This document shows, piece by piece, positions 688 to 64,000 of a stretch of DNA of 64,000 nt. Under the pieces are notes generated by a model. That model did not search any database. It was not told the origin of the DNA and was given only the letters and a program-made list of their open reading frames with translations. The position numbers and the translations under genes were made by a program. Source of the stretch: Armatimonadota bacterium (lineage in GTDB: Bacteria; Armatimonadota; UBA5829; DTJY01); contig OY760504.1 of assembly GCA_963663705.1 (NCBI GenBank), forward strand, positions 2,711,217-2,775,216. Direction: 5' to 3'. How positions within the stretch are numbered: position 1 is the first letter of the stretch; each line of letters opens with the position of its first letter.

Positions 688-1827
688 ATGTCACTGATAA
701 GAATCGGCTTCATCGGCGCGGGCTGGATGGGGTCTGTGCAGATGAAGAGAATAACCGAGCGAAACGACGCAGAGATCGTCGCGCTCTATGAGGCCAACCA
801 GGAGCGAGGCAGAGAAGTGCTCACAAACCTCGGCCTCTCCCCCGACATACTCGTAGACAATTACGAAGCGATCATCAACAACTCGGATGTCGATGCTGTC
901 TGGGTAGTGAGCCCGAACGCCTTCCACGCAGGACAGGCCATCGCAGCCATGAGAGCCGGGAAGCACGTCTTCTGCGAGAAACCGGCCGCCACAACCTTTG
1001 CCGACTACTGCGCCGAGATAGAGGCGGAGCGTGCGCACCCCGAGCTCATAACCTACGTAGACTACATACTCTACTTCGACAGCATGGAAGATCACCTTCG
1101 CCGTATGGTCGCAGGCGGCGAGTTCGGGGACGTCACCCAGATACAGGTGAACTACCGCCACCCCATAAATATCTCCGGCGACAAGGTCTGGAAGCTCAAA
1201 AAAGAGATCATGGGCGACGCCATCGGCATGGGAATAAACCACTCCATCTCCGTAATGGTAAACGTCATGAGCTCCCAGGCTAAACCTGCAGCAGTCTATG
1301 CCACCAGTACCCCCGCAAAGGTGCGGGGCTTCGAAGCAGACCCGGTCTGGAACATCATGGTTAAGTTCGACAACGGGGCGACCGGCTTCTGTGCGGGAAA
1401 CATTGACAACGGCAACGGGTATGACGCCTACCACAACATCTTCGGGACAGACGGCGGCTTCGTCTTCGACTCACAGCTTGAGAGGACACACAAAGTGCGC
1501 TACTGGTCCGCCAAGTCCACCGAAGGCAAGTGGGTCTACCCGCTCGATCCCGAAAAGTGCAAAGTGGAGGGACAGGAGGCGCTCATCTGGCCTGCGGACA
1601 CAACCACACCAGACAGCGGAAACGTTGTAGAGCACCAGACCGGCGCATGCGTCGGGCACTTCATAGAGTGCGTGAAGAGCGGGCAGAAGTCGCCGCTTTC
1701 GTTCGTGAACTCGTCGATCATAGCAGAGATCGGCTGGGCAGCGCAGATCTCCGCCAAGACAGGCAGTGAAGTACCTCTTCCGCTCGACTGGGCTGCGGCG
1801 AAGAAGTTTTTCGAGGCACAGCAGTGA
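688..1827 (+). CDS. Gfo/Idh/MocA family NAD(P)-dependent oxidoreductase
   Basis: N-terminal Rossmann motif IGFIGAGWMG; downstream EKP motif (FCEKPAA) typical of the family; 379 aa. Confidence 0.8.
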   Translation: MSLIRIGFIGAGWMGSVQMKRITERNDAEIVALYEANQERGREVLTNLGLSPDILVDNYEAIINNSDVDAVWVVSPNAFHAGQAIAAMRAGKHVFCEKPAATTFADYCAEIEAERAHPELITYVDYILYFDSMEDHLRRMVAGGEFGDVTQIQVNYRHPINISGDKVWKLKKEIMGDAIGMGINHSISVMVNVMSSQAKPAAVYATSTPAKVRGFEADPVWNIMVKFDNGATGFCAGNIDNGNGYDAYHNIFGTDGGFVFDSQLERTHKVRYWSAKSTEGKWVYPLDPEKCKVEGQEALIWPADTTTPDSGNVVEHQTGACVGHFIECVKSGQKSPLSFVNSSIIAEIGWAAQISAKTGSEVPLPLDWAAAKKFFEAQQ

Positions 1828-3113
1828 TTCAGATAAGAAGAACCAACAGCAATTTCGAGAGAGAACCTCTCACCGCACCATTCGGCTTCAAAGGCGGCTA
1901 CCTCTCCGAACTCTGGCAGAGTGTAGCACTCCTGGAGAGCGAGAACGGGCTCAAAGGCCTCGGCCTTGGCACGCAGAGCACACTTTGGTCGGACGCGGGG
2001 ATATTCACAAGCACCGCAGAATCAGCAGGAAACAGCCTGATGTATCTCATGACCGCATACGCGCTGAAACAGGCAGAAGGCATGGAGTTCAACACTCCCA
2101 TCGACCTGCTCGAACGTCTCCTCCCGATAACCTACGAATACGGGCAGAAGATCACAGGGAGGGATGACCTCCGTCTCACATTCGCCTTGAACGCGCTAGT
2201 GGCAGTAGACAACGCCGCCTGGCAGCTCTACGCGGCAGAGGGAGGCATCGCAATTTTCGATGATATGATCCCCGCTGATATCCGCCCTGCGCTCTCGCAT
2301 AGACACAGGGAACTCGCCAGCATCCCGCTCATGAGCTATGGGGTGCCGCTTCCCGGCATAATGCAGGCAGTGGAAGACGGATACTTCTTCCTCAAGATAA
2401 AGATCGGCTCCGACCCGAAGAAGGACGGCGACCGCGATAAGATGCTCGAGTGGGACAAGGCGAGGCTTGAGTCGATCCACAACGCCGTAAAAGACATAGC
2501 AACCCCATACACAGAGCACGGGCATATCCCGTACTACCTCGACGCAAACGGCAGGTACGATAGCAAAGACCGCCTGATGAGGTTTCTGGATCACGCGGAG
2601 CGGATCGGAGCGCTAGAGCGCATAATGATCATGGAAGAGCCGTTCCCGGAAGAGTATAGTGAAGATGTGCGAGACATCCCTGTGCGGCTCGCGGCGGACG
2701 AGAGCGCGCATTCAGATAAGGATGCAGCCGAGCGGATAGAGATGGGCTATGGTGCAATCGCCCTGAAGCCCATCGCGAAGACCATGAGCATGAGCCTCTT
2801 GATCGCAAAGCTCGCGCACGAGAAGGGAATCCCGTGCTTCTGCGCAGACCTCACCGTGAACCCTATACTCGTGGATTGGAACAAGAACGTTGCCGCCCGA
2901 CTCGCGCCGCTCCCGGGGATGAAGATCGGAGTGCTCGAATCGAACGGCCACCAGAACTACGCCCGGTGGGATGAGATGAAGTCATACCACCCATGTGCAG
3001 GGGCATCGTGGATGAACGCAGATAGAGGACTGTTCCATGCAGACTATGATTTCTATGCCCACAGCGGCGGAATCTTTGAGATGAGCGAGCACTATTGGAG
3101 GTTTGGGAAATGA
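1824..3113 (+). CDS. Enolase-superfamily enzyme (mandelate racemase / muconate lactonizing enzyme fold), putative sugar-acid dehydratase or epimerase
   Basis: GTG start overlaps the upstream stop (GTGA). KxK motif (KIKIG), metal ligands DANG, EEP and ADES at the expected spacing; 429 aa. Confidence 0.65.
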   Translation: MIQIRRTNSNFEREPLTAPFGFKGGYLSELWQSVALLESENGLKGLGLGTQSTLWSDAGIFTSTAESAGNSLMYLMTAYALKQAEGMEFNTPIDLLERLLPITYEYGQKITGRDDLRLTFALNALVAVDNAAWQLYAAEGGIAIFDDMIPADIRPALSHRHRELASIPLMSYGVPLPGIMQAVEDGYFFLKIKIGSDPKKDGDRDKMLEWDKARLESIHNAVKDIATPYTEHGHIPYYLDANGRYDSKDRLMRFLDHAERIGALERIMIMEEPFPEEYSEDVRDIPVRLAADESAHSDKDAAERIEMGYGAIALKPIAKTMSMSLLIAKLAHEKGIPCFCADLTVNPILVDWNKNVAARLAPLPGMKIGVLESNGHQNYARWDEMKSYHPCAGASWMNADRGLFHADYDFYAHSGGIFEMSEHYWRFGK

Positions 3114-8563: not shown

Positions 8564-8743
8564 GTTTCACAAACATGCCCAAATAAGCGCTTGCAAGCCT
8601 GAGCTGTACAAACCTGAACCTGCTATTCTTTCTCTTGAATAGCAATATCGATTCACAGAGACGTCGACCCATATTGCGGGTTAAGTGAGGAGTTGTTCCT
8701 CATGGAGTAACAGATACCCTAACTTTTTATTTTGAGGTGCAAC

Positions 8744-9634
8744 ATGCAGATAATAACCGGGGCAACTGCCAATGATATAAAGCCTGCGAGCCTGATGATG
8801 TGGGAGGCGTTCAACTGCGCTGCCACGAATCGGGGGAAGGATTACTTCTACAACCTTATGACCAACGAGCCGTACTTCGAGCCGGAGCAATTGCGCCTGG
8901 TCAAGATTGATGGACGAATTGCGGCCACTGTTGTGGTGGCAATTCGTGCAGTCTTTACCGATGCGGAGATCCTGCTGCTTGGCGGAATCGGGAACGTCGC
9001 CGTCCATCCCGACTTTCGGGGGAGGGATCTCTCGCTCGTCATCCTGCAGAATGCGATAGAGTACATGACGCAGAGAGGCTTTCACGCCTCCATCCTATAT
9101 TCCGGGCACATCGGCCTCTACGAGAAGGTTAGATTTGAGCGCATGCAGCGGCACGGCCACGTCACCGGGCGTGTGCCAGGCGAGGCAGAGCCGCTTGTGA
9201 AGACAAAGGACTGGGCGCTCGCAAAGAGGCTCTACGATGGGAGTTTTGCAAGACTTTCGGGAGGGCTGGTTCGGTCCGAGGCATTTTGGGCGTCGTACAT
9301 AACCCGCCGCTGGCTCGCCGTTGCGGATATCGTTTACAGTAGTGACAGGAGCGCGTATGCGACGGTTGTTGTTGATTCTGAGGATGGTTCGGTCACTGTA
9401 GTAGATGCAGGATATAAAGACAACCCCGACCAGCTTACTAATCTCTTTGCGACCGAGTTTGCCGGTATGCGGATATCGACTACGTCCACCGATCTGACGA
9501 ACCCGCTGCTTGCTGCGATGGAGTCGGCAATCGGGGTGCCGTCGGTCGTGCCTTCGCAGGACATGATGGCGCGCGGTATAGGGGGAAACCCGGTGCCCGC
9601 ACATATCTTCGATATGGGCGTAGACCATTTCTAA
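8744..9634 (+). CDS. GNAT family N-acetyltransferase (Eis-like architecture)
   Basis: Acetyl-CoA binding core IGNVAVHPDFRGRDLSLVILQNAIEYMTQRGF. ATG at 8744 is preferred over TTG at 8732. Confidence 0.65.
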   Translation: MQIITGATANDIKPASLMMWEAFNCAATNRGKDYFYNLMTNEPYFEPEQLRLVKIDGRIAATVVVAIRAVFTDAEILLLGGIGNVAVHPDFRGRDLSLVILQNAIEYMTQRGFHASILYSGHIGLYEKVRFERMQRHGHVTGRVPGEAEPLVKTKDWALAKRLYDGSFARLSGGLVRSEAFWASYITRRWLAVADIVYSSDRSAYATVVVDSEDGSVTVVDAGYKDNPDQLTNLFATEFAGMRISTTSTDLTNPLLAAMESAIGVPSVVPSQDMMARGIGGNPVPAHIFDMGVDHF

Positions 9635-10194: not shown

Positions 10195-11154
10195 TTATAG
10201 ACCGTACATGAAGTCGAGTATCTTGTCGTCTACGCCGGGGAGACATTCGTGCCCGAAGTCGGGGTAGATCAGCATGTTTTTCTTCGATGTGATTTTGTTG
10301 TAGGCTGCGAATTGCGTGGATGGAGGGCAAATATCGTCTATCAATCCGGTTGTCATCAGCACTTCGGCTTTGATTCGGCTTGCCAGATGTTGATTGTCGA
10401 TATAACCTAGCTTTGTAAATATCTCATCTTTGTGTTCATGTAGGGGATCGGTCATCCTGAAGTACGTGCGCAGTTCCTCGTAAGCGTTTTTGTCCAGATC
10501 CATCTCCCATACACGCAAGTAATCGCAGAGAAACGGCATGAAAGGCGCTGCAAGTTTGATCCTGGGCTCGAGAGCAGCACAGGCGAGCGTGAGTCCGCCT
10601 CCCTGCGAACCGCCTGTCGCTCCTACTCTCGCAGGATCGACTTCCGGCATGCCCATCAGTATCCGAGCTAGTTCGGCGCAGTCCAGAAATACAGAGCGGA
10701 AGAAGAGCTTCTTAGGATCGCCGCTCAATCCACGGATTATGTGGCCTTTATAAGTGTTTCCTGTCACGCCGCCTATGTCTTCCGATAGACCGGCCTGACC
10801 CCGGCAGTCAAGCGCCGCTACGGAAAATCCCTGGCCTACCCAGCTCAGGTAGTTGATCCATTCTCCGCTGTCTCTCGTGTAGCCGTGAAAGAACAGTACT
10901 CCGGGATGAGGCTTGTCTGCTCCCTTGGGGCGGAGATACTTGGCGTGGATGCGCGCCCCGCCGACGCCGGTGAAGTAGAGATGATAGCCCTCTGCAAACG
11001 GATGCTTGTATTCGCTCGGCACCAACTCAACCTTGGGGTCTATGTTTTGCATTTCGGTAAGGCTGTCATCCCAGAACTTGTCGAAATCGGCCGGACGCGG
11101 ATTACGACCTTGATATTCCATCAATTCTTCGAGTGGCATGTCGATAATCGGCAT
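10195..11154 (-). CDS. axe: CE7 acetyl xylan esterase / cephalosporin-C deacetylase family
   Basis: N-terminus MPLEELMEYQGRNPRPADFDKFWDD and the nucleophile elbow GGSQGGGL are hallmarks of CE7 (AXE1) enzymes; 319 aa. Confidence 0.8.
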   Translation of the reverse strand: MPIIDMPLEELMEYQGRNPRPADFDKFWDDSLTEMQNIDPKVELVPSEYKHPFAEGYHLYFTGVGGARIHAKYLRPKGADKPHPGVLFFHGYTRDSGEWINYLSWVGQGFSVAALDCRGQAGLSEDIGGVTGNTYKGHIIRGLSGDPKKLFFRSVFLDCAELARILMGMPEVDPARVGATGGSQGGGLTLACAALEPRIKLAAPFMPFLCDYLRVWEMDLDKNAYEELRTYFRMTDPLHEHKDEIFTKLGYIDNQHLASRIKAEVLMTTGLIDDICPPSTQFAAYNKITSKKNMLIYPDFGHECLPGVDDKILDFMYGL

Positions 11155-12469: not shown

Positions 12470-13174
12470 ATGATGAAAGAAAAAAGAGGTTTCACCCTGA
12501 TTGAATTGCTAGTTGTCATAGCTATAATAGCTATATTGGCAGCAATCCTGTTTCCTGTATTCGCAAAGGCAAGGGAGAAGGCACGGCAGGCATCATGCCA
12601 GAGCAATGTTAAGCAGTTGACTTTGGGCATGCTAATGTATACTCAGGATTATGATGAGACACTCCCTCCCTGGATTGTAGGAATGAGCGGTACATTTCCA
12701 AATGGTGACCCGGCAAGTAGTGGAGACCCGGCGGGCTATCAGATATGGCTGACATGTATCTATCCTTATGTTAAGAACAACAAAGTCTTTGTGTGCCCCA
12801 GCGCTGGCGGATTGGACTATACAGGAGGACAGTACTGGGGGGGAACGTTTGGGGCTAATAATCCGAAGATCGCTTCGTATGGTGCGAATTCGTGGATACT
12901 GTCGAGCATATACACCGGCGGTGTTACGATGTCAGATATAAAAATGCCGTCGGATACTCCTTTTATAGCCGATTGTGATTACTATATGGTTGGACCATAC
13001 ACGGGCGGCGATGCTTATAACACTAGGGTGCCTGCGGCACGGCACAATGATATGGTAAACATTGGGTTCGCGGATGGCCATGTAAAGACGTGTAAACAGG
13101 ATGCTTGGGTCACTTCGGGCGGTAAATCGTGGCGCGACCCTGTATGGGTGAAATGGTCGCCGGATCTTCAATAA
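12470..13174 (+). CDS. DUF1559 / H-X9-DG protein with a prepilin-type N-terminal cleavage-methylation domain
   Basis: N-terminus [40 protein letters not shown]; C-terminal GFADGHVKTC motif. Confidence 0.85.
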   Translation: MMKEKRGFTLIELLVVIAIIAILAAILFPVFAKAREKARQASCQSNVKQLTLGMLMYTQDYDETLPPWIVGMSGTFPNGDPASSGDPAGYQIWLTCIYPYVKNNKVFVCPSAGGLDYTGGQYWGGTFGANNPKIASYGANSWILSSIYTGGVTMSDIKMPSDTPFIADCDYYMVGPYTGGDAYNTRVPAARHNDMVNIGFADGHVKTCKQDAWVTSGGKSWRDPVWVKWSPDLQ

Positions 13175-13496: not shown

Positions 13497-15539
13497 ATGG
13501 ATCTTAGATGCGAAAAATTGAGCCTTAGTGTAAACGGTCAAGGAATTGTGGAATCCGTACGACTTATCGATAAAGACTACGAGTTTATAACCGGTGCAGC
13601 AGGTTACTCGGCGGTCGAAGATTGCCTGCAGAATTCTATCAGCGGAGACCCTGATGGCGAGACTCCGCAGGCAGCGACCCGCGTAGAGAACGGCTCGATT
13701 TACGTCACGAGGTCATTTGCGAGCGGGCTTGTGATAGAAGATACCTTCTCATCCGATTCCGGTGCGGTCCGGTGGAGAGTGCATGTCTCTACTTCGGAAA
13801 AGACTCCTAGAACTGCGAATCTCTTTCTCGTTCTGCCGGTACTCGGGCAGGACCGGCACGTCTTCGTTACGCACAACGACGCACCGCTCTCGCCGGGGAA
13901 TTTCCGCCATGTGCGCTATGTGTACGGAGGCGATCAGTTCCGAGGCGAGCTGCACAGGGCTGTGGCTCTCCCAGTCGTTACGTTTTACAAGCGCGAGGCG
14001 GACGCCGGACTGACTTGTGCAGTACCCGCGGGCTTGCCTGTGCCTGCCATATGGTATTCGATGTTCCACGAGTCGGATAAGGTAGGCTTCGTGAGTAAAT
14101 TTGTGAACATGCGGCTCTCGGCCAAGCATCCGATCGAAGTTGAGATGCTCATACACGGGCATGGCGGCAACTGGCAGGACGGCTTGTCCTGGTATAGCGA
14201 CCGGTATCACGATTACTTCACGGTCAAGAACGAGGATGTCTACAGGACTGAGGGCGCTATGATCTGTTCGCACGTCCTGCACAGCGAAGATGAAATCAGG
14301 AGATGGAAGGCACAGGGCTTCGCATGGCAGGAACTTCATGCCAACATGCTCTCCTACTACGGAGAATACATGCCGGAGGGCGAGCGATGGGAGACGATCA
14401 ACTCCAAATACCTTGCCAAGAACTTGGACCTGCGGAAGCTCGCCGCTCTCGATCCCGTGGGCGTAGAGTACAACACGCTGACCCAGTGTGCGCCGGATCC
14501 GTATATGAGCAAGAACCGCCTGCGCGAGTACATCGATACTCTGCACAAGAACGGTGTGGCTGCTTTCATCTACTTTAACCCCGTACTCTGCGACAAACAG
14601 ATAGTGGGGAGGTTCGAGTCCGACATAGCTAGAAACGAAGACGGCACACCCTGTGCTAATGGATACTACTTTGGCGTAAGTATGAACCCGGACCCCAATG
14701 GAGGCTGGGGGCGTCATCTGATACAACAGGTCGAGCGCATGATGAGTGAGTTCCCGAACTGTGACGGCATATTCTACGATGAGGTGCATTACCGCCATTA
14801 CGATTTCGCCCACGACGACGGCATCACGATGGTTCACAACAAGCCATGCTCCATGATAGGCTTCGCGATGGCTGATCTGGCAGAGCGTATCTGCGGAATC
14901 GTGCATGCCGCCGGAAAAGTCGTTTGGGCAAACGGCCCGACAAGCCTGGAGGTTGTTAGATACCTGGACGGATGTATGGCCGAGCATAGCAGCACATGGA
15001 TGGGCACGGTGCAGTATTTCTGTCTGGAGAAGCCGATGGTGCTGCTCGCCGGCGGAGACCCTGTCGATAAGCTCTGGGACGGATTCAAAAAGTCATTGGT
15101 CTGCGGTGGGCAGCCGGACGTACTCTGGAAGCTCGATGAGCAGGCAATTTCCGGCGATAACAAGGAGAATCTCTCTCCGAAACCGGCCGACGATCCTGCT
15201 CGACAGGCGCTATGCACGGCGTTCAGACCTCTGCTCGATATGATCAAGGGGCGCAAGTGGGTGCTCCAGCCGAACGTGCTCGAACTACCTGAAGGCGTAG
15301 TCGGCAACTTTTTCGAACTCAGGGACGGCTCTATCGCCATACCTCTGGCTGTGGATCAGCCGCAGAGCAATGTAACGGTGAAGGTGAAGAATACACTTCT
15401 TCCCGAGTATGCAAAGGCTGAGGTAATTACAACGGAGGGCGCTATTGCATCAACTTTGCGTATCGGATCAGGGGATATGTATGCCTCGATAGACATACCT
15501 CTTCTCCAACATGCAGCAGTAATCCGTCTTAACAGCTGA
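13497..15539 (+). CDS. Conserved hypothetical cytoplasmic protein (680 aa), with a paralog at 62001
   Basis: Long ORF with a coding pattern and no signal peptide. It is highly similar to the 62001.. ORF. Conserved segments HGHGGNWQDG, YFNPVLCDK, VWANGPTS. No family assignable by eye. Confidence 0.6.
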   Translation: MDLRCEKLSLSVNGQGIVESVRLIDKDYEFITGAAGYSAVEDCLQNSISGDPDGETPQAATRVENGSIYVTRSFASGLVIEDTFSSDSGAVRWRVHVSTSEKTPRTANLFLVLPVLGQDRHVFVTHNDAPLSPGNFRHVRYVYGGDQFRGELHRAVALPVVTFYKREADAGLTCAVPAGLPVPAIWYSMFHESDKVGFVSKFVNMRLSAKHPIEVEMLIHGHGGNWQDGLSWYSDRYHDYFTVKNEDVYRTEGAMICSHVLHSEDEIRRWKAQGFAWQELHANMLSYYGEYMPEGERWETINSKYLAKNLDLRKLAALDPVGVEYNTLTQCAPDPYMSKNRLREYIDTLHKNGVAAFIYFNPVLCDKQIVGRFESDIARNEDGTPCANGYYFGVSMNPDPNGGWGRHLIQQVERMMSEFPNCDGIFYDEVHYRHYDFAHDDGITMVHNKPCSMIGFAMADLAERICGIVHAAGKVVWANGPTSLEVVRYLDGCMAEHSSTWMGTVQYFCLEKPMVLLAGGDPVDKLWDGFKKSLVCGGQPDVLWKLDEQAISGDNKENLSPKPADDPARQALCTAFRPLLDMIKGRKWVLQPNVLELPEGVVGNFFELRDGSIAIPLAVDQPQSNVTVKVKNTLLPEYAKAEVITTEGAIASTLRIGSGDMYASIDIPLLQHAAVIRLNS

Positions 15540-15862: not shown

Positions 15863-15914
15863 TATTATGCAACAGCGAATCTGTATTTGCAACAAGATCA
15901 GGGGGATTACTAAA

Positions 15915-17189
15915 TTGGGTGATAAACTTGCACTTTTAGGTGGAAAACCGGCTGTAGACAAAGATGTAGAATTCAAAATATGGCCGGAAGTTACCAAAGA
16001 AGACGAAGAGTATGTGCTGGCATCTCTTCATCAGAACAATCATGCCTGGGGGCCCAACTGCATTGCGCTCCAGGATGAGTTTGCCGCATGGAATGGCAAC
16101 AAATTCTGCGCTGCCACAAACAGTGGCACGGCGGCGCTTCATATGGCGATAGCTGCATTTGGCATAGGCCCGGGCGATGAGGTGATTACCACCACACTCT
16201 CATGGACCTCCACTGCCACGTGTGTGATGCATCACAATGCCATCCCTATCTTTGTAGAAGTGGATTGGGATTCTATGCTGATAGATCCCAAAAAGATTGA
16301 AGCAGCCATCACCCCGAGGACCAAGGCCATTCTGCCAGTGCACTACTGGGGTGTGCCGTGCGACATGGACGCAATAATGGCAATTGCAAAGAAGCATGGG
16401 CTATATGTTTTGGAAGACGCGTGCCAGGGCCACGGTGCTACCTACAAGGGTCGGAAGACCGGTACTTTTGGGGAGTGTTCCGCCTTCAGTCTCAACCAGA
16501 ACAAAAACTTCTCCGCGGGTGAGGGCGGTCTATTTGTCACAGAGGATGAAAAACTGTTTGAGGCGGCACGTGCGCTGATGAGCTTTGGCGAGATGCGCGC
16601 TCCTGAATCGAATCGGGACTTCCACTCCTACGGCATGGGCTGGATGTATAGAACCGATGATATTTCAGCGGCATACGCCAGGAGTGCCCTTGCCAAACTG
16701 GATAAGACAAACGCGCAGGCCCGGGCAAATTTCGACCGTCTGCAAAACAGCCTGCAGGGCCTTAAGGGGATCGTACTGCCGTTTGACACCGAAGATCAGA
16801 AGAGTAACGGATATGCATATGTGATAAGGGTAGAACCGGAATCCGCAGGCTGGAACGGTAAAGCTTCGGAATTTCGCGATATCGTGATAAACGCACTTGC
16901 GGCCGAAGGCGTCCCGGTGGCGTCTGCCAGGTGGATGCTTCCCGCACATACGGTGTTTCAGGCGAAGAACGGTTACGGCAAAGGCTGCCCATGGGAGTGC
17001 CAGTACGCCCGGCAGGATATCGACTATTCTCTGGATCAGTATCCCATAACAAACCGCGTGGTGGACACCTGCATTCAGATAGCCATCAACGGGCATCGCC
17101 CCCCGAACGGCGGCGAACAGTTAGATGCGATAGCATCAGGTATCCGCAAAGTATTCGAGAACCTGGATCAGCTTCCGAGCGAAGCATAA
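15915..17189 (+). CDS. DegT/DnrJ/EryC1/StrS family PLP-dependent aminotransferase
   Basis: Family-typical blocks GDEVITTTLSW, AILPVHYWGVPCDMDAIMAIAKKHGLYVLEDACQGHG, SAFSLNQNKNFSAGEGG. TTG at 15915 has a GGGGG RBS and is preferred. The in-frame ATG at 15867 would sit at the predicted transcription start. Confidence 0.75.
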   Translation: MGDKLALLGGKPAVDKDVEFKIWPEVTKEDEEYVLASLHQNNHAWGPNCIALQDEFAAWNGNKFCAATNSGTAALHMAIAAFGIGPGDEVITTTLSWTSTATCVMHHNAIPIFVEVDWDSMLIDPKKIEAAITPRTKAILPVHYWGVPCDMDAIMAIAKKHGLYVLEDACQGHGATYKGRKTGTFGECSAFSLNQNKNFSAGEGGLFVTEDEKLFEAARALMSFGEMRAPESNRDFHSYGMGWMYRTDDISAAYARSALAKLDKTNAQARANFDRLQNSLQGLKGIVLPFDTEDQKSNGYAYVIRVEPESAGWNGKASEFRDIVINALAAEGVPVASARWMLPAHTVFQAKNGYGKGCPWECQYARQDIDYSLDQYPITNRVVDTCIQIAINGHRPPNGGEQLDAIASGIRKVFENLDQLPSEA

Positions 17190-17260: not shown

Positions 17261-18556
17261 ATGAAAGTTGGAACCGCATGGGCGGATATCACCCCATCCG
17301 TCCCCATAGACATCGTAGGGCAAATGGTTGTGAGAAAAGGGAAGTACACCCACGACCCGATAACAGTGAATGCCGTAGTCTTTGAGAAAGATGACACAAA
17401 GGTGGCGCTGGTCTCCTGTGATCTCTGTTATATGGGGATTAATGTCATTGATGATGTTCAGACTTTGTGTGAAAAGGAACTAGGGATACCGGCGGCTTCG
17501 GTTATCATCGCCTGCACTCACACGCATCTGGCCCCTGCCACACGCGATACGTTGTATGGAGACGTAAACGAAAATTTTATAAAAACGTACAAAGAATCTG
17601 TGGTAGATATAGTCCGCAGAGCCCTGAAAAATGCAGAAGATGTCGATATCTACGCCGGAGCAGGATGGATCGATCAGATGGGATTCAACCGCCGGGGGAT
17701 TACCAAAGCCGGTCACGCGGAGATGTATTACGGCAGCTGGGAGGCAGACTTCGACAGGGTGGAAGGCCCGCGAGATGGTCAGGTCGGCGTTCTGTTTGCC
17801 CGCAGACCGGATGGTAGCATAAAAGCAGTGGTTACCTCATTCTCTACCCATCCGAATTCTATGGAAGGCGAAAGCTTCTACAGCGCAGATCTGGTAGGCG
17901 CTACAAGAAATTTCTTGCGGCAGAATCTCGGCGAAGATGTGGGCGTAGTCTATCTCACCGGCGCCGCAGGGGATACCGCTCCGAGCAAACTTGATGATAA
18001 CAAGAACGGTGAGATGCCGTGGCGTGGAGAGGAAGGATGGAAACGTTCGGGACTATATCTCGGCAGCGAGATACTAAAAACCATCGCAGGGACGATAAAA
18101 CCGATGCCTGATCCCCTCTTGCGTCTGGAGCAGGAGTCGGTACCCATAGCGATCCGTCCCTGGCCTAATTTGACCTGGATGTCGAACGACACCCTCAGCG
18201 ATGCCTTCCAGGACTTCTATAGTCTGGAGAAAGAACGCTGGCCCGAAGTCATACGCAAGGAAAGCCCAATGAAGGTTCGCATCAACGTTCTGCGCATAGG
18301 GGACGCGAGCATCTGTACAAACCCAGGAGAATTGTTCGTGGACTACGGGCTGCAGATCAAAAAGTCGTCCCCATCAAACATTACGCTCATCTCCGAGCTT
18401 ACGGACGGCAATGTCGGTTATGTTCCTACAGAAGAAGCTTTCCGGCACGGGGGATATGAAACAATGCCTGCAGAAAGCAGCTTACTTGACGAGCCCGCGG
18501 GAGGGATCATCGTACAAACCACCCTGAATCTACTGAACAAAGCCTTTACGGCATAA
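17261..18556 (+). CDS. Neutral/alkaline ceramidase-like N-terminal domain family hydrolase (putative)
   Basis: MKVGTAWADITPSVPIDIVGQMVVRKGKYTHDPITVNAVVFEKDDTKVALVSCDLCYM fits the G-A-x-DITPP...HDPL-A-A...LVSLDL pattern of bacterial ceramidase-like proteins. RBS GGAGAG 6 nt upstream. The listed ORF's 16931 start overlaps the previous gene. Confidence 0.45.
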   Translation: MKVGTAWADITPSVPIDIVGQMVVRKGKYTHDPITVNAVVFEKDDTKVALVSCDLCYMGINVIDDVQTLCEKELGIPAASVIIACTHTHLAPATRDTLYGDVNENFIKTYKESVVDIVRRALKNAEDVDIYAGAGWIDQMGFNRRGITKAGHAEMYYGSWEADFDRVEGPRDGQVGVLFARRPDGSIKAVVTSFSTHPNSMEGESFYSADLVGATRNFLRQNLGEDVGVVYLTGAAGDTAPSKLDDNKNGEMPWRGEEGWKRSGLYLGSEILKTIAGTIKPMPDPLLRLEQESVPIAIRPWPNLTWMSNDTLSDAFQDFYSLEKERWPEVIRKESPMKVRINVLRIGDASICTNPGELFVDYGLQIKKSSPSNITLISELTDGNVGYVPTEEAFRHGGYETMPAESSLLDEPAGGIIVQTTLNLLNKAFTA

Positions 18557-18683: not shown

Positions 18684-19544
18684 ATGGCAGTAGATAAATT
18701 GGAATTCTTAACCGAAATGGGAGAATACCTCCCGGAAATCACATGCATCGGACGTTCTATCTTCGATCCTGTATATGCAGAGGAAGAACACGTTGATAAA
18801 TCGTCCGAGCTCATTCACTTTCTGCATGGGCGCGGGGAGGTTCGGACCCGTGATTTCACTATATACGGCAAAGAGGGTGATAGTATCTACCTGCCTGCCG
18901 ATGTGCCGCATCGCGACATATTTGAAAAAGGCTATGCATTTGAAGCGTACCTGGTCCAATTCCGCTGGGCAGGCGAAGAGAGTTTGCTCAAGGCGTTTCA
19001 TCCGTCGCAGCTGGCCGATATCTCGGAGCCGGGTAAGCTGCGGATCGCCGCGGAATTTCAAAGCCTCTTTAGCGATTTTTCCGATCATATGCCTTTTGGG
19101 GCAGAGATGACTAGCCTGAACATTCTGCGCATCATAGCCATCATGTGCAGAGAGGCTGGAAATATTGCAGGGATGGAAGATCTTCACTCAAGCGATGTGG
19201 GCAAACCGCGGCGCGTGCAGTTGATGATGCAGGCCAAGCGCATTATCATGGATAAGTTCAACGAACCCATAAACCTTGCTCTCATCGCATCGCAATTGAA
19301 TATCAGTTCATATTACCTCTCGAGAGTCTTCAGCGAAGAGAGCGGGTTCCGGCTGTCGAGCTATCTGACCCAGATTCGCATGGAAAAGGCTGTCGCGATG
19401 CTCGACGATTCCCGCCTCAACCTCGCTGAAGTCGGGCGGGCCGTTGGTTTTAGCGATAGCCACTACTTCGGGCAGGTCTTCAAGGCTTATTTTGGAATAT
19501 CCCCCAAAGTTTACAGGGCAAAACTTTTGCCTGATCAGGATTGA
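18684..19544 (+). CDS. AraC family transcriptional regulator
   Basis: C-terminal double HTH (SYYLSRVFSEESGFRLSSYLTQIRMEKAVAMLDDSRLNLAEVGRAVGFSDSHYFGQVFKAYFGISP) with an N-terminal sensing domain. Confidence 0.8.
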   Translation: MAVDKLEFLTEMGEYLPEITCIGRSIFDPVYAEEEHVDKSSELIHFLHGRGEVRTRDFTIYGKEGDSIYLPADVPHRDIFEKGYAFEAYLVQFRWAGEESLLKAFHPSQLADISEPGKLRIAAEFQSLFSDFSDHMPFGAEMTSLNILRIIAIMCREAGNIAGMEDLHSSDVGKPRRVQLMMQAKRIIMDKFNEPINLALIASQLNISSYYLSRVFSEESGFRLSSYLTQIRMEKAVAMLDDSRLNLAEVGRAVGFSDSHYFGQVFKAYFGISPKVYRAKLLPDQD

Positions 19545-19564: not shown

Positions 19565-19609
19565 TAGCAAGATATTACCCTTTACCATATGTACCATCAA
19601 CACTATAAT
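19565..19609 (+). promoter_or_regulatory. Operator-like motif TAGCAAGATATTAC plus a TTTACC-N17-TATAAT promoter for the isomerase/oxidoreductase/xylA operon
   Basis: Motif at 19565-19578, -35 at 19581-19586, -10 at 19604-19609. The region starts inside the last codons of the AraC gene. Confidence 0.45.
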
Positions 19610-19666
19610 TATTGCATACCAAGCATTTTTTTGAGGCCTGCTTGCCAGGCGACTCTGGAGGAAACG

Positions 19667-20506
19667 ATGCGATATGCGATGATGTCTTACACAATGGCTA
19701 TTGGAGACTGGGGTAAAGATTGCGACGTTGCCGAACTGTGTCACATAACCTCAACGATGGGCATTGAAGGAATTGATTGGGTTACGACTTACGGTGTCTC
19801 CCCGCGAGAAGTGAAGATCCTCATGGATGATCATGGCCTGAAAACGGTCTGCTACACCTTCGATGTTGATGTGAACTTTCCCGAGAGGAGTGCACGACAG
19901 GCTGGTGTGGATGATATCAAACGTGGAATAGACACGGCGCTGATTCTGGGTACGGACAGGGTGATGCTGCCTTTTCCCGGCAAAGATGCGTTCTCCCGCG
20001 AGGAAAGCCGTGCGAATATCATTGCAGGGCTCAGCGATGCGATGGATTATGCCAAATCGTGCGGTGTAATGATAAGCACGGAGCACTTCTCAACGCCTAA
20101 TGCCCCATTCATAGTCTCGGCGGATATGAACGCCGCCATCCGCGAACTCCCCGACCTCAAGGTGACATTTGACAGTGGAAATGTCCTCATCGGTGGAGAG
20201 AACCCTGTTGATGGATTCCTCCGCAGCAAAGAGTCCATTGTGCATGTTCATTTCAAAGATTTCGCAGAGAACGGATGTCGCTTTACCGGGCTTGATGGGA
20301 GATTGTATGACGCTGCGCTGATAGGGGAAGGCATTGTCGATTACCCGCCGCTTGTTGCAGCCATGATAGACGCCGGATATGACGGCTGGATCAATATAGA
20401 GTACGAAAGCGGTGAATATCCCGCAGACAAGGCTGTGCGTAAAGCCATAGATTACCTGAAATCCATAGAAGACCGGCTCATGGAACCAGCTGGGAGCAAG
20501 CTATGA
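19667..20506 (+). CDS. Sugar phosphate isomerase/epimerase (xylose-isomerase-like TIM barrel)
   Basis: TIM-barrel family pattern. RBS GGAGGA before the ATG at 19667. The longer ORF start at 19589 lies upstream of the predicted -10. Confidence 0.65.
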   Translation: MRYAMMSYTMAIGDWGKDCDVAELCHITSTMGIEGIDWVTTYGVSPREVKILMDDHGLKTVCYTFDVDVNFPERSARQAGVDDIKRGIDTALILGTDRVMLPFPGKDAFSREESRANIIAGLSDAMDYAKSCGVMISTEHFSTPNAPFIVSADMNAAIRELPDLKVTFDSGNVLIGGENPVDGFLRSKESIVHVHFKDFAENGCRFTGLDGRLYDAALIGEGIVDYPPLVAAMIDAGYDGWINIEYESGEYPADKAVRKAIDYLKSIEDRLMEPAGSKL

Positions 20507-21654
20507 ATCGAAAGATCAGAATGGGTATGGTAGGCGGCGGAGTAGGTGCATTCATCGGTGGTGCACACCGCATGGCTGCGCAATTGGATGGACAGATAGA
20601 ACTGGTCTGCGGCGCGTTCAGCTCCGATCGCGATAAGTCGATGGCGAGCGGGCGTGCTTTGTATCTGCCTGATGACAGAATTTACGGTAGCTATCAGGAT
20701 ATGTTTGCGAAGGAATCAGCCCTGCCATCGAGTAAGCGGATGGATTTCGTCTCGATAGTCACTCCGAACCACATGCATTATCCGGTGGCAATGGCAGCCC
20801 TCGATGCAGGGTTTCCTGTGGTATGCGACAAGCCGATGACGCTGACTCTTGATGAGGCCAAAGCCCTCGCGAAAAAGGTTGAAGAGACAGGGCTCCTGTT
20901 CTGCCTCACCCATAATTATACGGGTTATCCTATGGTTAAAGAAGCTCGTGATCTGGTTAACGGCGGCGCATTAGGTGCAGTACGGCGCGTGGTGGTCGAG
21001 TACCCGCAGGGCTGGATGGCGACTTCCCTTGAATCGACTGGTCAGAAACAGGCAGATTGGAGAACCGACCCTGCACGTGCAGGCGCAAGCTTCACTATGG
21101 GCGATATAGGCAGCCACTGCGCAAATCTTGCCGAGTACATCACCGGTCTTGAGATTGAGCAGGTTTGCGCTGATCTCACATCGTTCGTGCCCGGCCGTGC
21201 GCTCGACGACGACGGCAGCGTGCTCCTTCGCCTGAGCGGTGGTGCAAAAGGCGTACTCTGGGCGAGCGATATTGCCGTTGGTGAAGAGAACGACCTGAAC
21301 ATCCGCGTCTACGCAGAAAAAGGCGCGATCGAGTGGCACCAGCATGATCCCAACACCCTCATCGTTCACTGGCTAGACAAGCCAAGTGAGATTCGGCGAA
21401 CATCCACCGGCTTCGTAGGCGCAAACGCAGCCTCGAACACGCGCCTTCCTGCCGGACATGTGGAAGGCTTCCTGGAAGCGTTCGGAAACATCTACAAAAA
21501 CTTCGCCGACACACTGACCAAGCGGCTTGAAGGCGATACATCCGCAACCGGCGACTTCCCCACTGTAGATGATGGCGTCCGTGGGATGGCCTTTATTCAA
21601 TCAGTGGTAGAGAGTTCGGCATCTAATCAAAAATGGATAAATATCAAAGCTTAA
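20503..21654 (+). CDS. Gfo/Idh/MocA family oxidoreductase
   Basis: [17 protein letters not shown] Rossmann N-terminus; CDKP motif; ATGA overlap with the upstream gene. Confidence 0.8.
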
Positions 21655-21665
21655 GGGGAATTGAA

Positions 21666-22661: not shown

Positions 22662-22686
22662 GTTATCTAGCGCAGGAGAAGTTTAT

Positions 22687-23439: not shown

Positions 23440-23538
23440 TACCAAATGGTAGCCCTGTATCGGCAGATTCACTCGATCAATGGCGCTCGTTTCGTTTCTG
23501 CCGATAAGGAAGCTATCTTAATGCAAACGGAGGTAATT

Positions 23539-27984: not shown

Positions 27985-28575
27985 TATATTATTCCTTGAT
28001 GCGTGTGCAGGGTGATAAACTATGATATATCGGATTGAGGCGTTTGAGCGTCACAAAATTTCGCATGGAATTTGCACGAACATGCGGAAGCGTGTAAGCT
28101 CCCTCATGTTCGATTTGTAATCATAATTTGCTATGTATGCCAGGCGTCAATTATTAATCTATCGATGCCTTCTAAGGAACATTAGCCCTGGCTTAACGCT
28201 GCTTATTAACCCGTCGAGCATTACTATACTTAGTCCCGAGGGCTCAGGTACGGGTGCTGCCGGTGATATGGCGATAAAGGTAGGCGCACCCACCGGATGA
28301 TCTGCTATTGCGGTAATTATATACCATGGCAACAGGATATTGTCAAGTAATAATGCAATAAATTGTTACTGTCCAGCGACTTTGTCCCGGTTAATTGTCC
28401 AGCGATTATGTCCCATCCAGATACCGTGAAAAATCAAAAACAATGGTGAAATTCTCCATTCACACGGTGTGCTGAAGATGGTAAACTTTGCTCATGATAC
28501 AGCCTCGATGTGATGAGTGCTTATCTGCAAGCGGGTTTTGCGGTGATATTTCGTCAAAGAACGAGGAGGACTAAG

Positions 28576-31167: not shown

Positions 31168-31191
31168 TTATAGATTCGGAGGAATAAGAAG

Positions 31192-32085: not shown

Positions 32086-32116
32086 TGGAATTGGATATCA
32101 GGTGAGGAGTCGTAGA

Positions 32117-58886: not shown

Positions 58887-59549
58887 CTAGTCCCCCTCAT
58901 AGTTGATCAGGAAGCTTATGTGGTACGGAGCGTGAATCGTTGCGTCGGTACGGGGATCGTTGATAACTCCCTGTGCCTCAGCGAGATTTTTGTACCATTT
59001 GACATGACCGTCACCGAAGACGATATTGTCGCCGCCGCTGTGCCTGTCCCCCTGGCAGTAAGCGAAATTGTTACAGTAGTTTGGCATGTCCAATGTGTTC
59101 GCCCAACGCCACCACGGCTCGTCGTCTTCCAGCATCACTACCCACTGCGCGGGGCATTTGACGGCCGAAAGGGGCACCCCGTCAATAGCCACACCCATGG
59201 GGAACTGTCCGACGCTCTGGTTCGGAAGATAACTCAGGTAGCCGCTCGAATCTGTTGCATAAGGATCGCTCGGGCAGCGTTTTAAGCCCTTGCTTTTTAT
59301 GTACGGTTCGAGAACGACCGCCCACGACGGGCTGGAGCCACCGCAGGGGAAGAACTTCTCGTCGTAATCCTGCAGGTACATCATGGTAGCAGTACCTATC
59401 TGCTTCATGTTGCTCTGACAACTCACTTGCCTTGCCTTCTCTCTGGCCTTGGCAAATACAGGGAAGAGAATTGCTGCCAGGATTGCTATAATAGCAATTA
59501 CGACTAGCAACTCAATGAGAGTGAAACCTTTTCTTCTTGTACACTTCAT
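58887..59549 (-). CDS. DUF1559 / H-X9-DG prepilin-type N-terminal domain protein
   Basis: [41 protein letters not shown]; C-terminal FGDGHVKWY. Confidence 0.85.
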
Positions 59550-60073
59550 TTCTTTTCCTCCATTTCGTAGTGTGAATTACTGTTCCGAAAAACCATTACT
59601 ATGCCGGTTTTTTCTACTCTGCCACCCCCTTTCCCAAAACCTTGCCATATCCTTTGCCGAATCGTTTTGGCAAAAATAGCTAAATAACTTACGTTAAGCG
59701 CCAGATAGGTTCGTAGTCATGCCAGCCGTAAGTTCTTGAAGCTGATTGTAAGCGCTTGCTAGCGCAGAAAGCCCTGTGGCCGTAGTGGCGTCAAAGGAAC
59801 AGATAAGATAGTCAGAGTATAGATCGAGCATGTGTGCTTCATATAACTATTTTATCACAACGCCAACTGGCTGTTCCACCGATTTTCTAGTCATTACATA
59901 TCGCCTGCTGCTGGCTAACCTGCCAGACAGGTGCGTAGCGAGCTAGTAAATCAATTATAGGTTCATATCGCTATATGCACAATAGTCGATATTTAGTTTG
60001 GACATATTTTTTGTTTGTTGACTAATCTTCATTTTTGTCTATAATTTACATAGGTGTTTTGAAGAGAGTTTAT

Positions 60074-60919
60074 ATGGAGAGAAAGACCATGTTGAAAGCA
60101 AGCACGGCTTGGGATGATTTGCTTTTGGAATTTCGAAATCCCACCTTCATCTTCGGAGAAGAGATCCTGCAAGAGCGGATGCACAGTATAGCTGAGCATA
60201 AGCACGATTATTATCAAATGGATTACTTCAATCACGGTCGAGGCAGGATTGCTATTGCAGGCAAAGAGTATATTGTCATGGCGGGCGACATCTTTATCTG
60301 TAACCCAGGAGACAGACATGAGATTTGTTGTTTCAAGTCAGAGCCTGTCGAACGCATTATGGTAAAATTCAATCCATCGGTGGGTGACGCTAAGAATCAT
60401 GTTTTTCCAAACTATATCGGCAACTTGGGTCTACTGCCGCACGACCAGCAGAAGGAATTGGAACACAATCTGCGTCGGGCATGTATAGAGGCAAATAAGG
60501 ATAATGTCTTATTATCCATAGCTCTTTTCACCGTATTCTTCCTGTCCATGATCAGTTACCTCCGAGATGCCTCTCTATTGGTGAAGTCGGGTTGCATCGA
60601 GGGCCGAAACCATCGCATCATGGATTACCTGAAACGAAATTACAACAGACCGATTACTCTTTCAGACCTGTCAAATCTGACCGGCTTGCATCCTCAATAT
60701 CTCTGTCACCAGTTCTCTATGGAGATGGGTATCCCTCCGATGGCTGCACTCACCAGACACAGGATACAGGTCTCCAAGAAACTACTTATCAATACCAATC
60801 TGCCGATCAACGAGATAGCTGTCAGAGTTGGCTGCGAAGATGTGTACAACTTTTCCAAACGATTCAAGATGATAGAGGGTCTTTCTCCACTAAACTGGAG
60901 AAAAAAACATTCCAGTTGA
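60074..60919 (+). CDS. AraC family transcriptional regulator (cupin plus HTH)
   Basis: C-terminal AraC HTH (LTGLHPQYLCHQFSMEMGIPPMAALTRHRIQVSKKLLINTNLPINEIAVRVGCED). GC is lower than in surrounding genes. Confidence 0.75.
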   Translation: MERKTMLKASTAWDDLLLEFRNPTFIFGEEILQERMHSIAEHKHDYYQMDYFNHGRGRIAIAGKEYIVMAGDIFICNPGDRHEICCFKSEPVERIMVKFNPSVGDAKNHVFPNYIGNLGLLPHDQQKELEHNLRRACIEANKDNVLLSIALFTVFFLSMISYLRDASLLVKSGCIEGRNHRIMDYLKRNYNRPITLSDLSNLTGLHPQYLCHQFSMEMGIPPMAALTRHRIQVSKKLLINTNLPINEIAVRVGCEDVYNFSKRFKMIEGLSPLNWRKKHSS

Positions 60920-62000: not shown

Positions 62001-64000
62001 ATGGAACTTAAAAGTGAAAACCTAAGCATTTCTGTAAGTGAGTTGGGAATTGTGGAGTCTATCCGGCTCATTGATAGAGAATATGAATTTATCTCGGGAG
62101 CTCCGGGTTATTCGGCGGTTGAAGATTGCATGAAGGAACGTATCATCGGGGGGCCAGACTGCGAAACTCCGCAGGTGGAGACTCGAGTGGAAAATAGCGC
62201 GATTTTCATTTCGAGGCTCTTCCCGAGCAGCGGACTGACTATAGAAGATATCTTTTCATGTGATTCAGGAGCCATAAGGTGGAAAGTACGTGTATCTACT
62301 TGCGATGAAGTTCCTCGAACTGCACATGTCTATATGGTTCTGCCTGTATTGGGACAGGACCGCCATGTCTTCGTTGCTCACAATGATGCTCCACTGGCGC
62401 CACAGAATTTTCGCCATCTGCGGTATGTATACGGCGGAGATATGTTCAGAGGCGAACTGCATAGGGCTGTCGCATTACCTGTCGTTACGTTTTATCAGCC
62501 CCAAGCAGATGCGGGTTTGACGTGCGCCGTACCTGCGGGATCGTCTGTGCCGATCATATGGTATTCTATGTTCCACGAGTCAGATAAGGTCGGTTTTGTG
62601 AGCAAGTTTACCAATATGCGGCTCTCTGCCAATTGTCAGATCGAGATTGATATGCTCATACATGGGCATGGTGGAAACTGGCAGGATGGTTTGGCATGGT
62701 ACAGCGAAAGATATCACGACTACTTCACGGTCAAGAACGAGGATGTCTACAAATCAGAGGGAGCTATGCTCTGCTCTCATGTTTTGCACACCGAGGACGA
62801 GATCAAGAGATGGAATCGGCAGGGATTTGCATGGCAGGAATTGCATGCTAACATGCTCTCTTTCTATGGTGAATATATGCCGGAGGAAGATTCTTGGGAG
62901 ACAATCAACTCCCGATACCTGGCTAGAAACCTTGACCTCGGAAAATTGGCTCTCCTTGATCCTCTCGGCGGAGAGTATGACGCGTTAGTTCAGGATGCGC
63001 CCGATCCGTATCTGAGCAAAGACAGGCTGCGCGACTATATCGATCTTCTGCACAAAAACGGCGTGGCTGCTTTCATCTACTTTAACCCCGTTCTCTGCGA
63101 TAAACATATCGTCGGACAATTTGAGTCCGATATCGCCAGAAACTAAGATGGTACTCCTTGCGGTGATGGATACTACTTTGGCGTAAGCATGAACCCTGAT
63201 CCGAACGGATGCTGGGGTCGGTACTTGATCGCACAGGTAGAGCGTATGATGCTCGAGTTCCCGAACTGCGATGGCATATTCTACGATGAGGCACATTACC
63301 GCCACTACGATTTCGCCCATGATGATGGCATCACCATGGTTCATAACAAATCATGCTGTATGCTAGGCTTTCCCATGGTTGAAATGGCCGAGCGTATCTG
63401 CGGAATCGTCCATGCTGCAGGAAAGGTTGTATGGGCTAACGGCCCGACGAGTATTGAGATAGCCAAATATTTGGATGGATTCATGGCCGAGCACAGCAGT
63501 GTATGGATGGGTACAGTTCAGTATTTTGGCTTGGAGAAACCGATGGTGCTGCTTGCCGGTGGAGATTCTATCGATGAACTCTGGAACGGATTCAAAAAAG
63601 CGCTGATATGTGGAGGACAGCCGGACGTACTGTGGCAACTTGATGAGAGCGCCATTCCTGGCGATTCTAAGGAAAGCTTTGCACCTAAACCGGCCGATGA
63701 TCCTGATCGCCAGGCGCTTTGCATGGCTTTCAGGCCTCTACTGGATCTGATTAAAGGACGCAAATGGATACTCCTGCCAAGCCTACTCGAATTACCGGAA
63801 GGCGTAATCGGCAATTGTTTCAAACTTAGGGATGGCTCTATTGCGATACCGTTGGCGGTGGACCGGCCGCTGAGCAATATAACGATAAGGCTCAAGAATA
63901 CGCTTCTGTCTGATCATGCGAAAGCTGAGATTATTACAACGGAGGATGCATTTGCATCGAATGTATCGATTATATCTGGTGATAGATATGCATCGATCGA
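62001..64000 (+). pseudogene. Paralog of 13497..15539 interrupted by an in-frame TAA at 63144-63146; 3' end lies beyond the window
   Basis: DIARN-TAA-DGTPCGDGYYFGVSMN here against DIARNEDGTPCANGYYFGVSMN in the paralog. Homology continues in the same frame to the window end. Confidence 0.55.

Follow-up and report, generated by a model that had tools for sequence, protein, structure and literature searches.

The α-galactosidase, or GH-D-like, superfamily of glycoside hydrolases (GH) includes enzymes that carry the catalytic nucleophile on strand β4 of the barrel and the general acid/base on β6, which is the arrangement of clan GH-D and of GH66. Among its GH129 members are the α-N-acetylgalactosaminidase NagBb (PDB 5wzn), which has a Ca2+ site (PMC8106489), and the 3,6-anhydro-D-galactosidase ZgGH129 (PDB 5opq/8rzk), and GH101 is related to them. 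FpGalNase, the α-galactosaminidase of Flavonifractor plautii (GH36, clan GH-D; PDB 8x1b / 9awt), has the GH36 nucleophile motif K-x-D on β4 as K461/D463, and its residues D463 and D532, 69 apart, are both essential (PMC11762096). Here we compare with these enzymes the product of a gene, copy 1, at positions 13497..15539(+) of a 64,000-nucleotide stretch of DNA (the window) from an Armatimonadota bacterium (GenBank assembly GCA_963663705.1, contig OY760504.1, positions 2,711,217 to 2,775,216 of the forward strand); a paralogue, copy 2, lies at the end of the window. We propose, with a probability of about 0.62, that copy 1 encodes a cytoplasmic, three-domain retaining α-glycosidase whose family is unclassified and whose substrates are imported oligosaccharides.

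Predicted fold and candidate catalytic residues of copy 1

Copy 1 is an intact open reading frame (ORF) of 680 aa with an ATG start, as an earlier note on this DNA had described it. An AlphaFold2 model built from a 33-sequence alignment has a mean predicted local distance difference test score (pLDDT) of 93.3 and a predicted TM score (pTM) of 0.92, and it divides the protein into the following parts.

13497..15539, +, copy 1, intact gene of an unclassified GH-like family (ORF, AlphaFold2 model, 409 homologous representatives)
13497..14162, +, aa 1-222, N-terminal β-supersandwich domain, all-β and galactose-mutarotase-like (AlphaFold2 model)
14163..15260, +, aa ~223-588, central (β/α)8 barrel (AlphaFold2 model)
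Copy 1 aa, barrel strands β1 254-258, β2 275-280, β3 355-360 and β4 424-427 (AlphaFold2 model)
Copy 1 aa, barrel strands β5 475-479, β6 492-496, β7 514-517 and β8 ~544-546 (AlphaFold2 model)
15261..15536, +, aa ~589-680, C-terminal all-β sandwich domain (AlphaFold2 model)

The order of β-sandwich, barrel and β-sandwich is the same as in GH36, GH129 and GH31. When the model was compared with the PDB by Foldseek, the top match was FpGalNase (E=1.4e-20, TM 0.61), followed at lower ranks by ZgGH129, GH36 α-galactosidases, NagBb, GH66 dextranases, GH31 sulfoquinovosidases and GH101, all of them at 8-11% identity. Structural comparison with individual enzymes gave the following pairs of values.

GH66 (barrel only): 22.0 / 21.5 / 20.1; about 370
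FpGalNase: 20.9; 553
NagBb: 19.8; 502
ZgGH129: 18.8; 508
GH31 YicI: 18.2; 477

Structure prediction, which the earlier note had suggested as a check, thus places the modelled fold nearest to α-glycosidases (FpGalNase, NagBb, GH66 and YicI), and on this model the copy 1 family belongs structurally in the superfamily that holds GH36, GH31, GH129, GH101, GH66 and GH13.

Conservation, read from a MAFFT alignment of 156 homologues, singles out three acidic residues at or near the ends of the barrel strands.

14778..14780, +, codon GAT, D428, proposed catalytic nucleophile (156/156; C-terminal end of β4, motif DG-I-F-Y-D)
14982..14984, +, codon GAG, E496, proposed general acid/base (152/153; C-terminal end of β6, strand 492-496)
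14817..14819, +, D441, invariant Asp in the β4-α4 loop motif DFAHDDG (145/145)

Further conserved positions are Y359 (99% of homologues), N479 and R227 (96% each), D491 (95%), D436 (92%) and E279 (91%). By the strand assignment of the model (DSSP), D428 and E496 provide the invariant carboxylates at the ends of β4 and β6 that characterise the retaining superfamily; they are 68 residues apart, with strand 475-479 the one between them. An alignment of the family profile to YicI alone by hhalign had negligible probability, yet it paired the segment from β3 to β4 (KICVWINPY...LLKRPDG...FTNPD in YicI with AAFIYFNPV...IARNEDG...MNPDP in the family). When the template was widened to two sequences by a second GH31 gene, found by phmmer with YicI at one of the relatives' loci (L075), residues 342-428 aligned on YicI 328-416 and D428 fell on D416, with P=0.0098 and a probability of 4%. 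We take YicI D416 to be the nucleophile. In the YicI register, strand 393-396 would be an extra element of the β3-α3 loop, which puts D428 on β4 and E496 on β6. We therefore propose catalytic roles for D428 and E496 on solid grounds of conservation, topology and spacing, together with the weak profile alignment, and D441 is probably a substrate-binding or transition-state residue. These findings agree with the suggestion in the earlier note that the protein could be an undescribed glycoside-hydrolase-like enzyme.

If the roles that we infer from the model and the alignment are right, the enzyme would hydrolyse an α-linked (axial) glycoside by retaining double displacement. D428, at the end of β4, would attack the anomeric carbon to form a glycosyl-enzyme intermediate, and E496, at the end of β6, would serve as general acid and then as general base. 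D441, Y359, E279 and N479, at other strand ends, would shape the -1 subsite. Its most likely task would be to trim oligosaccharides after their import, within the glycan-utilisation island to which the gene belongs.

In the model the protein opens with strand one of the N-domain, nothing that resembles a signal peptide comes before it, and the close relatives of copy 1 are built alike and have no signal peptides. The earlier note had called the protein cytoplasmic; the N-terminus agrees with that description, and the protein is probably cytoplasmic, a location that we read from its sequence. Residues 225-227, at the junction of N-domain and barrel, set the two copies and their closest relatives (P0001-P0003) apart: these have N/S225 and Q227 (14169-14177; copy 2, 62676-62684), and the rest of the family has R227 in 96% and D225 or C225 in 63% and 19%, respectively.

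Sequence searches and spread of the family

The earlier note had found no recognisable family signature, and this is true at curated thresholds. The only Pfam-A (2025) model to touch copy 1 was GHL6 (PF14871; residues 325-428), at 19.2 bits against a gathering cutoff of 35 bits, and copy 1 had no match in NCBIfam 20 (June 2026) or, by phmmer, among PDB sequences up to 2026. When 33 members were scanned singly in Pfam, we saw sub-threshold echoes, all of them of TIM-barrel glycosidase families: GH29 in 4/33 (best E=6.4e-5), GHL6 in 3/33 (E<0.1) and GH66 in 1/33 (E=0.015). The GH29 model, Alpha_L_fucos, did not match copy 1 and was weak in its four members. Melibiase/GH36 was absent from the copy 1 scan at E<=10 and from the 33-member scan at E<=0.1, and the GH129 (GHL1-3) and GH31 models matched neither copy 1 nor any of the 33 members.

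Searches with family profiles gave the same picture. Profiles of 33 and 125 sequences reached in the PDB only the N-domain of ZgGH129 (residues 12-132, E=0.0034) and the carbohydrate-binding module (CBM) CBM66 of Bacillus subtilis levanase, and the levanase match falls on a C-terminal extension of the long homologues. This extension carries a PF06439/CBM66-like module: PF06439 was found there in nine long homologues among the 33 members scanned, it is the sole precomputed Pfam domain in 10/34 listed relatives, and about 38% of the CBM-fused forms have a signal peptide. Against 5.8 billion proteins at E<=1, the 125-sequence profile returned family members only, with no Pfam-annotated bridge sequences, and a ZgGH129 fragment rebuilt from HMMER output returned a single 163-aa fragment from the large database. 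A confident match to a characterised family, named in the earlier note as what would speak against a new enzyme, was thus absent for copy 1, for the 33 single members and for both profiles across Pfam-A, NCBIfam and the PDB.

The family is sparse. A word-indexed search gave 32 relatives (best 53% identity), and in an exhaustive HMMER scan of 1.84 billion representatives 409 passed E<=1e-3 and 109 passed E<=1e-30. Loci with a relative numbered 87 in 185,579 species (one genome per species), and the 80 that we kept all come from metagenome-assembled genomes (MAGs), with no cultured source organism evident. Many of these MAGs are Acidobacteriota; others are Planctomycetota/Phycisphaerae, Lentisphaerota, Kiritimatiellota, Verrucomicrobiota, Firmicutes/Clostridiales, Gemmatimonadales, Glassbacteria, Stahlbacteria, WOR-3 and a few archaeal MAGs. 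The nearest relatives of the window genes (52-54%) lie on Clostridia-like contigs with SpoIID and SpoIIID genes, and together with the MAGs of many phyla they indicate that the family crosses phyla. Names given to relatives by their sources are few and read "hypothetical protein", and we found no account in the searchable literature that matches these proteins.

The family is therefore probably a new one among the GH families, although its superfamily and its mechanism are well known. It could instead already belong to an existing, possibly recent, CAZy family that has neither a Pfam model nor a solved structure, and copy 1 would then count as an ordinary CAZyme. We regard this as unlikely, since nothing reached threshold in Pfam-A, NCBIfam or the PDB sequences, the large profile returned family members only, the one Pfam domain of relatives lies in the extension, and the source names, the origin of 80/80 loci from MAGs and the silence of the searchable literature all speak against it.

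Copy 2, its stop codon and the duplication

The earlier note had described two paralogues, and the paralogy is directly established. A tblastn search with copy 1 gave a single in-frame high-scoring segment, 62001-63998 (E=0), in which 77.2% of 666 aa are identical, and nucleotide identity is 76.4% over 2019 nt, far beyond chance. Of the shared blocks that the note had listed, YFNPVLCDK and VWANGPTS are identical in both copies, and the 30-aa block agrees at 28/30 positions, with copy 2 reading HGHGGNWQDGLAWYSERYHDYFTVKNEDVY. The ORF at 62001 is interrupted by a stop codon, which the note had missed, and it also runs off the end of the window.

62001..64000, +, copy 2, paralogue cut off by the window end (tblastn; its C-terminus is seen in P0033 and L008)
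63144..63146, +, in-frame TAA, a nonsense mutation at codon 382 of copy 2 against GAA in copy 1 (L008, L091, source annotation)

As far as the window reaches, copy 2 shows neither frameshifts nor stops apart from this TAA, and it keeps all the proposed catalytic residues (D429, D442 and E497 in its own numbering). The source genome annotation splits it into coding sequences (CDSs) of 381 aa and 266 aa. There are also public fragments of copy 2: P0035 ends exactly at ...SDIARN, P0033 begins at M415 and supplies the missing C-terminus, and P0108 has an extra frameshift at codon 117. All three come from one ENA contig, ERZ21878447:ctg36551l (L008), which is 99.75% identical to window 58441-64000 and also has the TAA. 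The 14 differences are 1-nt (once 2-nt) indels, mostly in homopolymers, and one substitution beside a 2-bp indel; in the comparison with window 58441-62351, L008 has the extra bases at 12/13 indel sites, several of which break its DUF1559 gene. These homopolymer-type differences indicate that L008 is a noisier assembly of the same strain, and we rejected the codon-117 frameshift as a feature of the window, since it is a homopolymer error of L008. The window itself resembles a long-read assembly after polishing, and it may elsewhere keep residual homopolymer errors.

The stop codon itself is directly established. Window 62722-64000, with its TAA, is matched at 100% identity by a Logan contig (L091, run ERR12015701, seen in three samples), and with the same TAA in three assemblies we rejected a sequencing error. 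TAA is also the commonest stop codon in the window, where it ends 13/28 well-supported genes, and on this count we rejected stop-codon reassignment. By the Nei-Gojobori method, comparison of the two copies gives a ratio of nonsynonymous to synonymous substitution (dN/dS) of 0.095 for the part before the stop and of 0.079 for the part behind it, at a dS of about 1.5. Low ratios on both sides at this dS point to an old duplication, long selection on both copies and a recent nonsense mutation. We found neither relaxed selection after the stop (dN/dS 0.079) nor further lesions in the part of copy 2 that lies in the window, which fits a very recent event. Copy 2 is an old paralogue, long kept by purifying selection, in which a very recent GAA-to-TAA change inactivated the gene or split it.

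It is improbable, in our judgment, that copy 2 still works, either by reassembly of two separate polypeptides, aa 1-381 and a second one from about 396/415 onward, or by readthrough of the TAA. The catalytic residues downstream of the stop are all intact, the post-stop dN/dS is as low as 0.079, and annotations of the source genome and of other assemblies have separate CDSs from M396 or M415. However, between old paralogues a low dN/dS is blind to constraint lost recently, the stop interrupts the barrel between β3 and β4, and the codon is the commonest genuine stop of the window. No signal for readthrough or reinitiation came to light, though no search was aimed at one.

Beyond the window end, L008 continues from copy 2 directly into a 379-aa GFO/IDH/MocA gene and a 429-aa MR_MLE gene. 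L008 5791-8206 is 79.4% identical in DNA to window 688-3103, which holds a similar pair, and a DUF1559/N-methyl gene and an AraC regulator lie near each copy.

688..3113, +, GFO/IDH/MocA oxidoreductase and enolase-superfamily (MR_MLE) gene pair (Pfam)
12470..13174, +, prepilin-type N-methyl/DUF1559 gene, upstream of copy 1 (Pfam PF07596, PF07963)
18684..19544, +, AraC-family regulator near copy 1 (Pfam)
58887..59549, -, DUF1559/N-methyl gene near copy 2 (Pfam)
60035..60919, +, AraC-family regulator (cupin and helix-turn-helix), upstream of copy 2 (Pfam)

The divergence of the gene pairs is close to that of the family genes, which indicates that family gene, GFO and MR_MLE were duplicated together as a block, with rearrangement afterwards. 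L008 5791-13636 holds, after the pair, a 522-aa gene of no known type and two phage-type tyrosine integrases, so the copy 2 block may adjoin a mobile or variable region.

A ~430-nt element upstream of copy 2 (61370-61797) recurs inverted at 338-641, upstream of the GFO gene at 688; identity is 95% in a stretch of 95 nt and 81% in one of 182 nt. It has internal direct and inverted repeats of 24-28 nt and no Rfam match, and it may have a regulatory role or be a small mobile repeat. A 155-aa ORF across it (61346-61813, -) was rejected as probably not a gene because the element at 338-641 keeps no common reading frame.

Genomic setting, alternative readings and comparison with known glycosidases

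The genomic contexts were read directly from the window and from the loci of relatives. The window is a glycan-utilisation island, in agreement with the carbohydrate-gene setting described by the earlier note.

3095-4747, GH39 gene (Pfam)
4823-8521, 1232-aa protein with only a C-terminal CBM9-like module (E=9e-7)
8732-9634, GNAT gene
10195-11154, -, carbohydrate esterase CE7/AXE1 gene
15867..17189, +, DegT/DnrJ/EryC1-type sugar aminotransferase, pyridoxal phosphate-dependent, downstream of copy 1 (Pfam E=8e-91)
17264..18556, +, neutral-ceramidase-like (amidase) gene (Pfam PF04734, 35.1 bits against a 32.1 cutoff)
26386-27984, -, GH123 gene
37579-39525, GH42-like gene
42471-44003, GH78 gene
47070-48428, -, sugar-binding protein gene

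Clusters of GFO/IDH/MocA oxidoreductases that alternate with xylose-isomerase-like TIM (AP_endonuc_2) proteins occupy 19589-24597 and 30097-34167. These clusters and the PF06439 (3-keto-disaccharide hydrolase/DUF1080-type) modules of relatives presumably recall an oxidative route of 3-keto-glycoside cleavage. The start of the ceramidase-like gene is uncertain. Its longest ORF, from a GTG at 16931, shares about 260 nt with the DegT gene; the Pfam match begins at residue 2 of the version from ATG 17264, which makes 17264 the likelier start.

Among relatives, two loci of a Clostridiales MAG have a CUT1 ATP-binding cassette (ABC) importer (substrate-binding protein and two permeases), the family gene, Amidohydro_2, GNAT and CN_hydrolase. 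One MAG has a GH42-like gene immediately 5' of a family gene, twice; other homologues adjoin GH2/GH106, GH2 with BNR, or GH29, and one lies with GH31, DUF5107 and DUF4832 in a Bacteroidota run resembling a polysaccharide utilisation locus. Across the family, BNR genes lie upstream in 8/65 loci, DUF885 genes downstream in 12/74 and Amidohydro_2 genes in four. The neighbourhood comparison that the earlier note had recommended therefore shows glycan-related surroundings that are only loosely conserved, and we found no strongly conserved family-wide operon among the relatives' loci. A signature-motif search of those loci for GH31/GH36/GH13/GH66 genes gave two candidates, one (L061) with no PDB match and the other GH13-like (L081).

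Homologues of three neighbours of copy 1 recur near family genes elsewhere: those of the DUF1559/N-methyl gene in five other loci, those of the DegT gene in four (adjacent in two), and those of the ceramidase-like gene within 8 kb in four (L020, L025, L071 and L075, from Kiritimatiellota, Bryobacteraceae, Prolixibacteraceae and an unclassified chromosome). Neutral-ceramidase-like genes are, to our knowledge, rare in bacteria, and their recurrence, taken as raw counts, is suggestive. The ceramidase-like homologues fall below Pfam detection and may form a distinct, uncharacterised amidase-like family.

A more specific proposal is that the family acts on α-linked amino-sugar or N-acyl-amino-sugar glycosides, possibly glycolipid head groups, in a module with the DegT aminotransferase and the ceramidase-like amidase. 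The best full-length structural neighbours, an α-galactosaminidase (FpGalNase) and an α-GalNAc-ase (NagBb), point this way, as do the DegT and ceramidase-like homologues near family genes in four loci each in different phyla, the Amidohydro_2, GNAT and CN_hydrolase genes behind the sugar importer of the closest Clostridiales relatives, and the GH123 gene 11 kb away; we take GH123 to be the glycosphingolipid β-GalNAc-ase family. We give this more specific new-family proposal a low probability.

A protein with the same fold and catalytic residues could also be mainly a transglycosylase or glycan-remodelling enzyme and not a hydrolase, as in the GH66 cycloisomaltooligosaccharide glucanotransferase or the GH31 transglucosylases. 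We think this quite unlikely, because the contexts are catabolic, with sugar importers, exo-glycosidases and downstream sugar oxidoreductases. Non-catalytic derivatives of glycosidases usually lose the catalytic Asp/Glu pair. A glycosidase-like scaffold with other chemistry or none (a lyase like the α-glucan lyases of GH31, a phosphorylase, or a protein that has no catalytic activity and binds sugars or regulates) would suit the amide or amine chemistry to which the DegT, ceramidase-like and, in relatives, Amidohydro_2/CN_hydrolase neighbours point, but it is highly improbable given the near-absolute Asp/Glu pair at the β4 and β6 ends, the signature of an active retaining glycosidase.

Several points weigh against a retaining α-glycosidase of an unclassified family acting on imported oligosaccharides. 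Every sequence-level tie to a known GH family is below threshold, and the hhalign template for GH31 consisted of two sequences and gave a probability of 4% only. The proposed assignment of D428, E496 and D441 draws on secondary-structure position, conservation and spacing. In the subclade of the window, N/S225 and Q227 replace D/C225 and R227, so that specificity may differ there. The term "unclassified" holds for Pfam, NCBIfam and the PDB, with CAZy/dbCAN families outside the comparison. Finally, the family-wide neighbourhood is loosely conserved and has many non-glycan genes, such as DUF885 in 12/74 loci.

Some further features of the window lie apart from the two copies. The scan for promoters and terminators around copy 1 gave counts not above shuffled expectation, and an Rfam scan of the whole window gave no matches. 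The window begins (2-307) in the C-terminal part of a LacI-type (periplasmic-binding-fold) regulator, judged from its translation. The 4823-8521 protein has ~1000 N-terminal residues without annotation and is another candidate glycan-active enzyme. There are four prepilin-type N-methyl/DUF1559 genes in the 64 kb (28510-29187, 29336-29947, 12470-13174 and 58887-59549(-)); the first two are tandem paralogues with 73% nt identity, one of them related to the gene near copy 2. Multiple genes of this kind are typical of genomes of the Planctomycetota-Verrucomicrobiota-Chlamydiota (PVC) group. A 246-nt direct repeat (39578-39823 and 40976-41221, 94% identity) might mark an insertion or a recent local duplication; ORF 39799-40773(-) runs with its 3' end into the first copy, and the second is contained in ORF 40741-41433(+) and overlaps ORF 41352-42122(-).

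If confirmed biochemically, copy 1 would found a new glycoside hydrolase family in the α-galactosidase superfamily. The family now comprises about 400 sequence clusters, every one of them named "hypothetical", and uncultured Acidobacteriota, Planctomycetota, Lentisphaerota, Kiritimatiellota and Clostridia supply nearly the whole set. Confirmation would also give a function to a recurrent gene of glycan-degradation loci in soil, sediment and gut MAGs. A new α-glycosidase specificity might emerge; among the nearest structural relatives are enzymes of interest to biotechnology, such as those for blood-group A-to-O conversion. The result is not surprising in kind and has no bearing on a long-standing open question; its practical gain is modest but concrete: a model of high confidence, a pair of candidate catalytic residues, and copy 1 as an intact gene for expression.

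Compared with known systems, copy 1 is closest in Pfam to GHL6, an uncharacterised "hypothetical glycoside hydrolase-like" family and the only model to touch it; the match ends at D428, and at 19.2 bits against 35 copy 1 is not a member. GH31 (E. coli YicI α-xylosidase and YihQ-type sulfoquinovosidases) aligns with weak statistics (P about 0.01) and no Pfam match, and its acid/base is an Asp where the candidate in copy 1 is a Glu. The GH66 dextranases and cycloisomaltooligosaccharide glucanotransferase (PDB 8iu8, 3wnk and 5axg) align by the barrel only, and GH66 enzymes are secreted endo-dextranases, whereas the copy 1 protein looks cytoplasmic. GH129 has no catalytic-domain sequence match with the family, whose profile reaches the ZgGH129 N-domain only. 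GH36 (FpGalNase and AgaA-type α-galactosidases), with about 11% identity to copy 1 and no Pfam Melibiase match, has a second carboxylate that is an Asp, whereas that of the copy 1 family is a Glu. Its K-x-D motif becomes F426-x-D428 (F 92%, D 100%, no Lys), and by this replacement of the GH36 hallmark the copy 1 family, which has the three-domain architecture of GH36 in its model, is not GH36.

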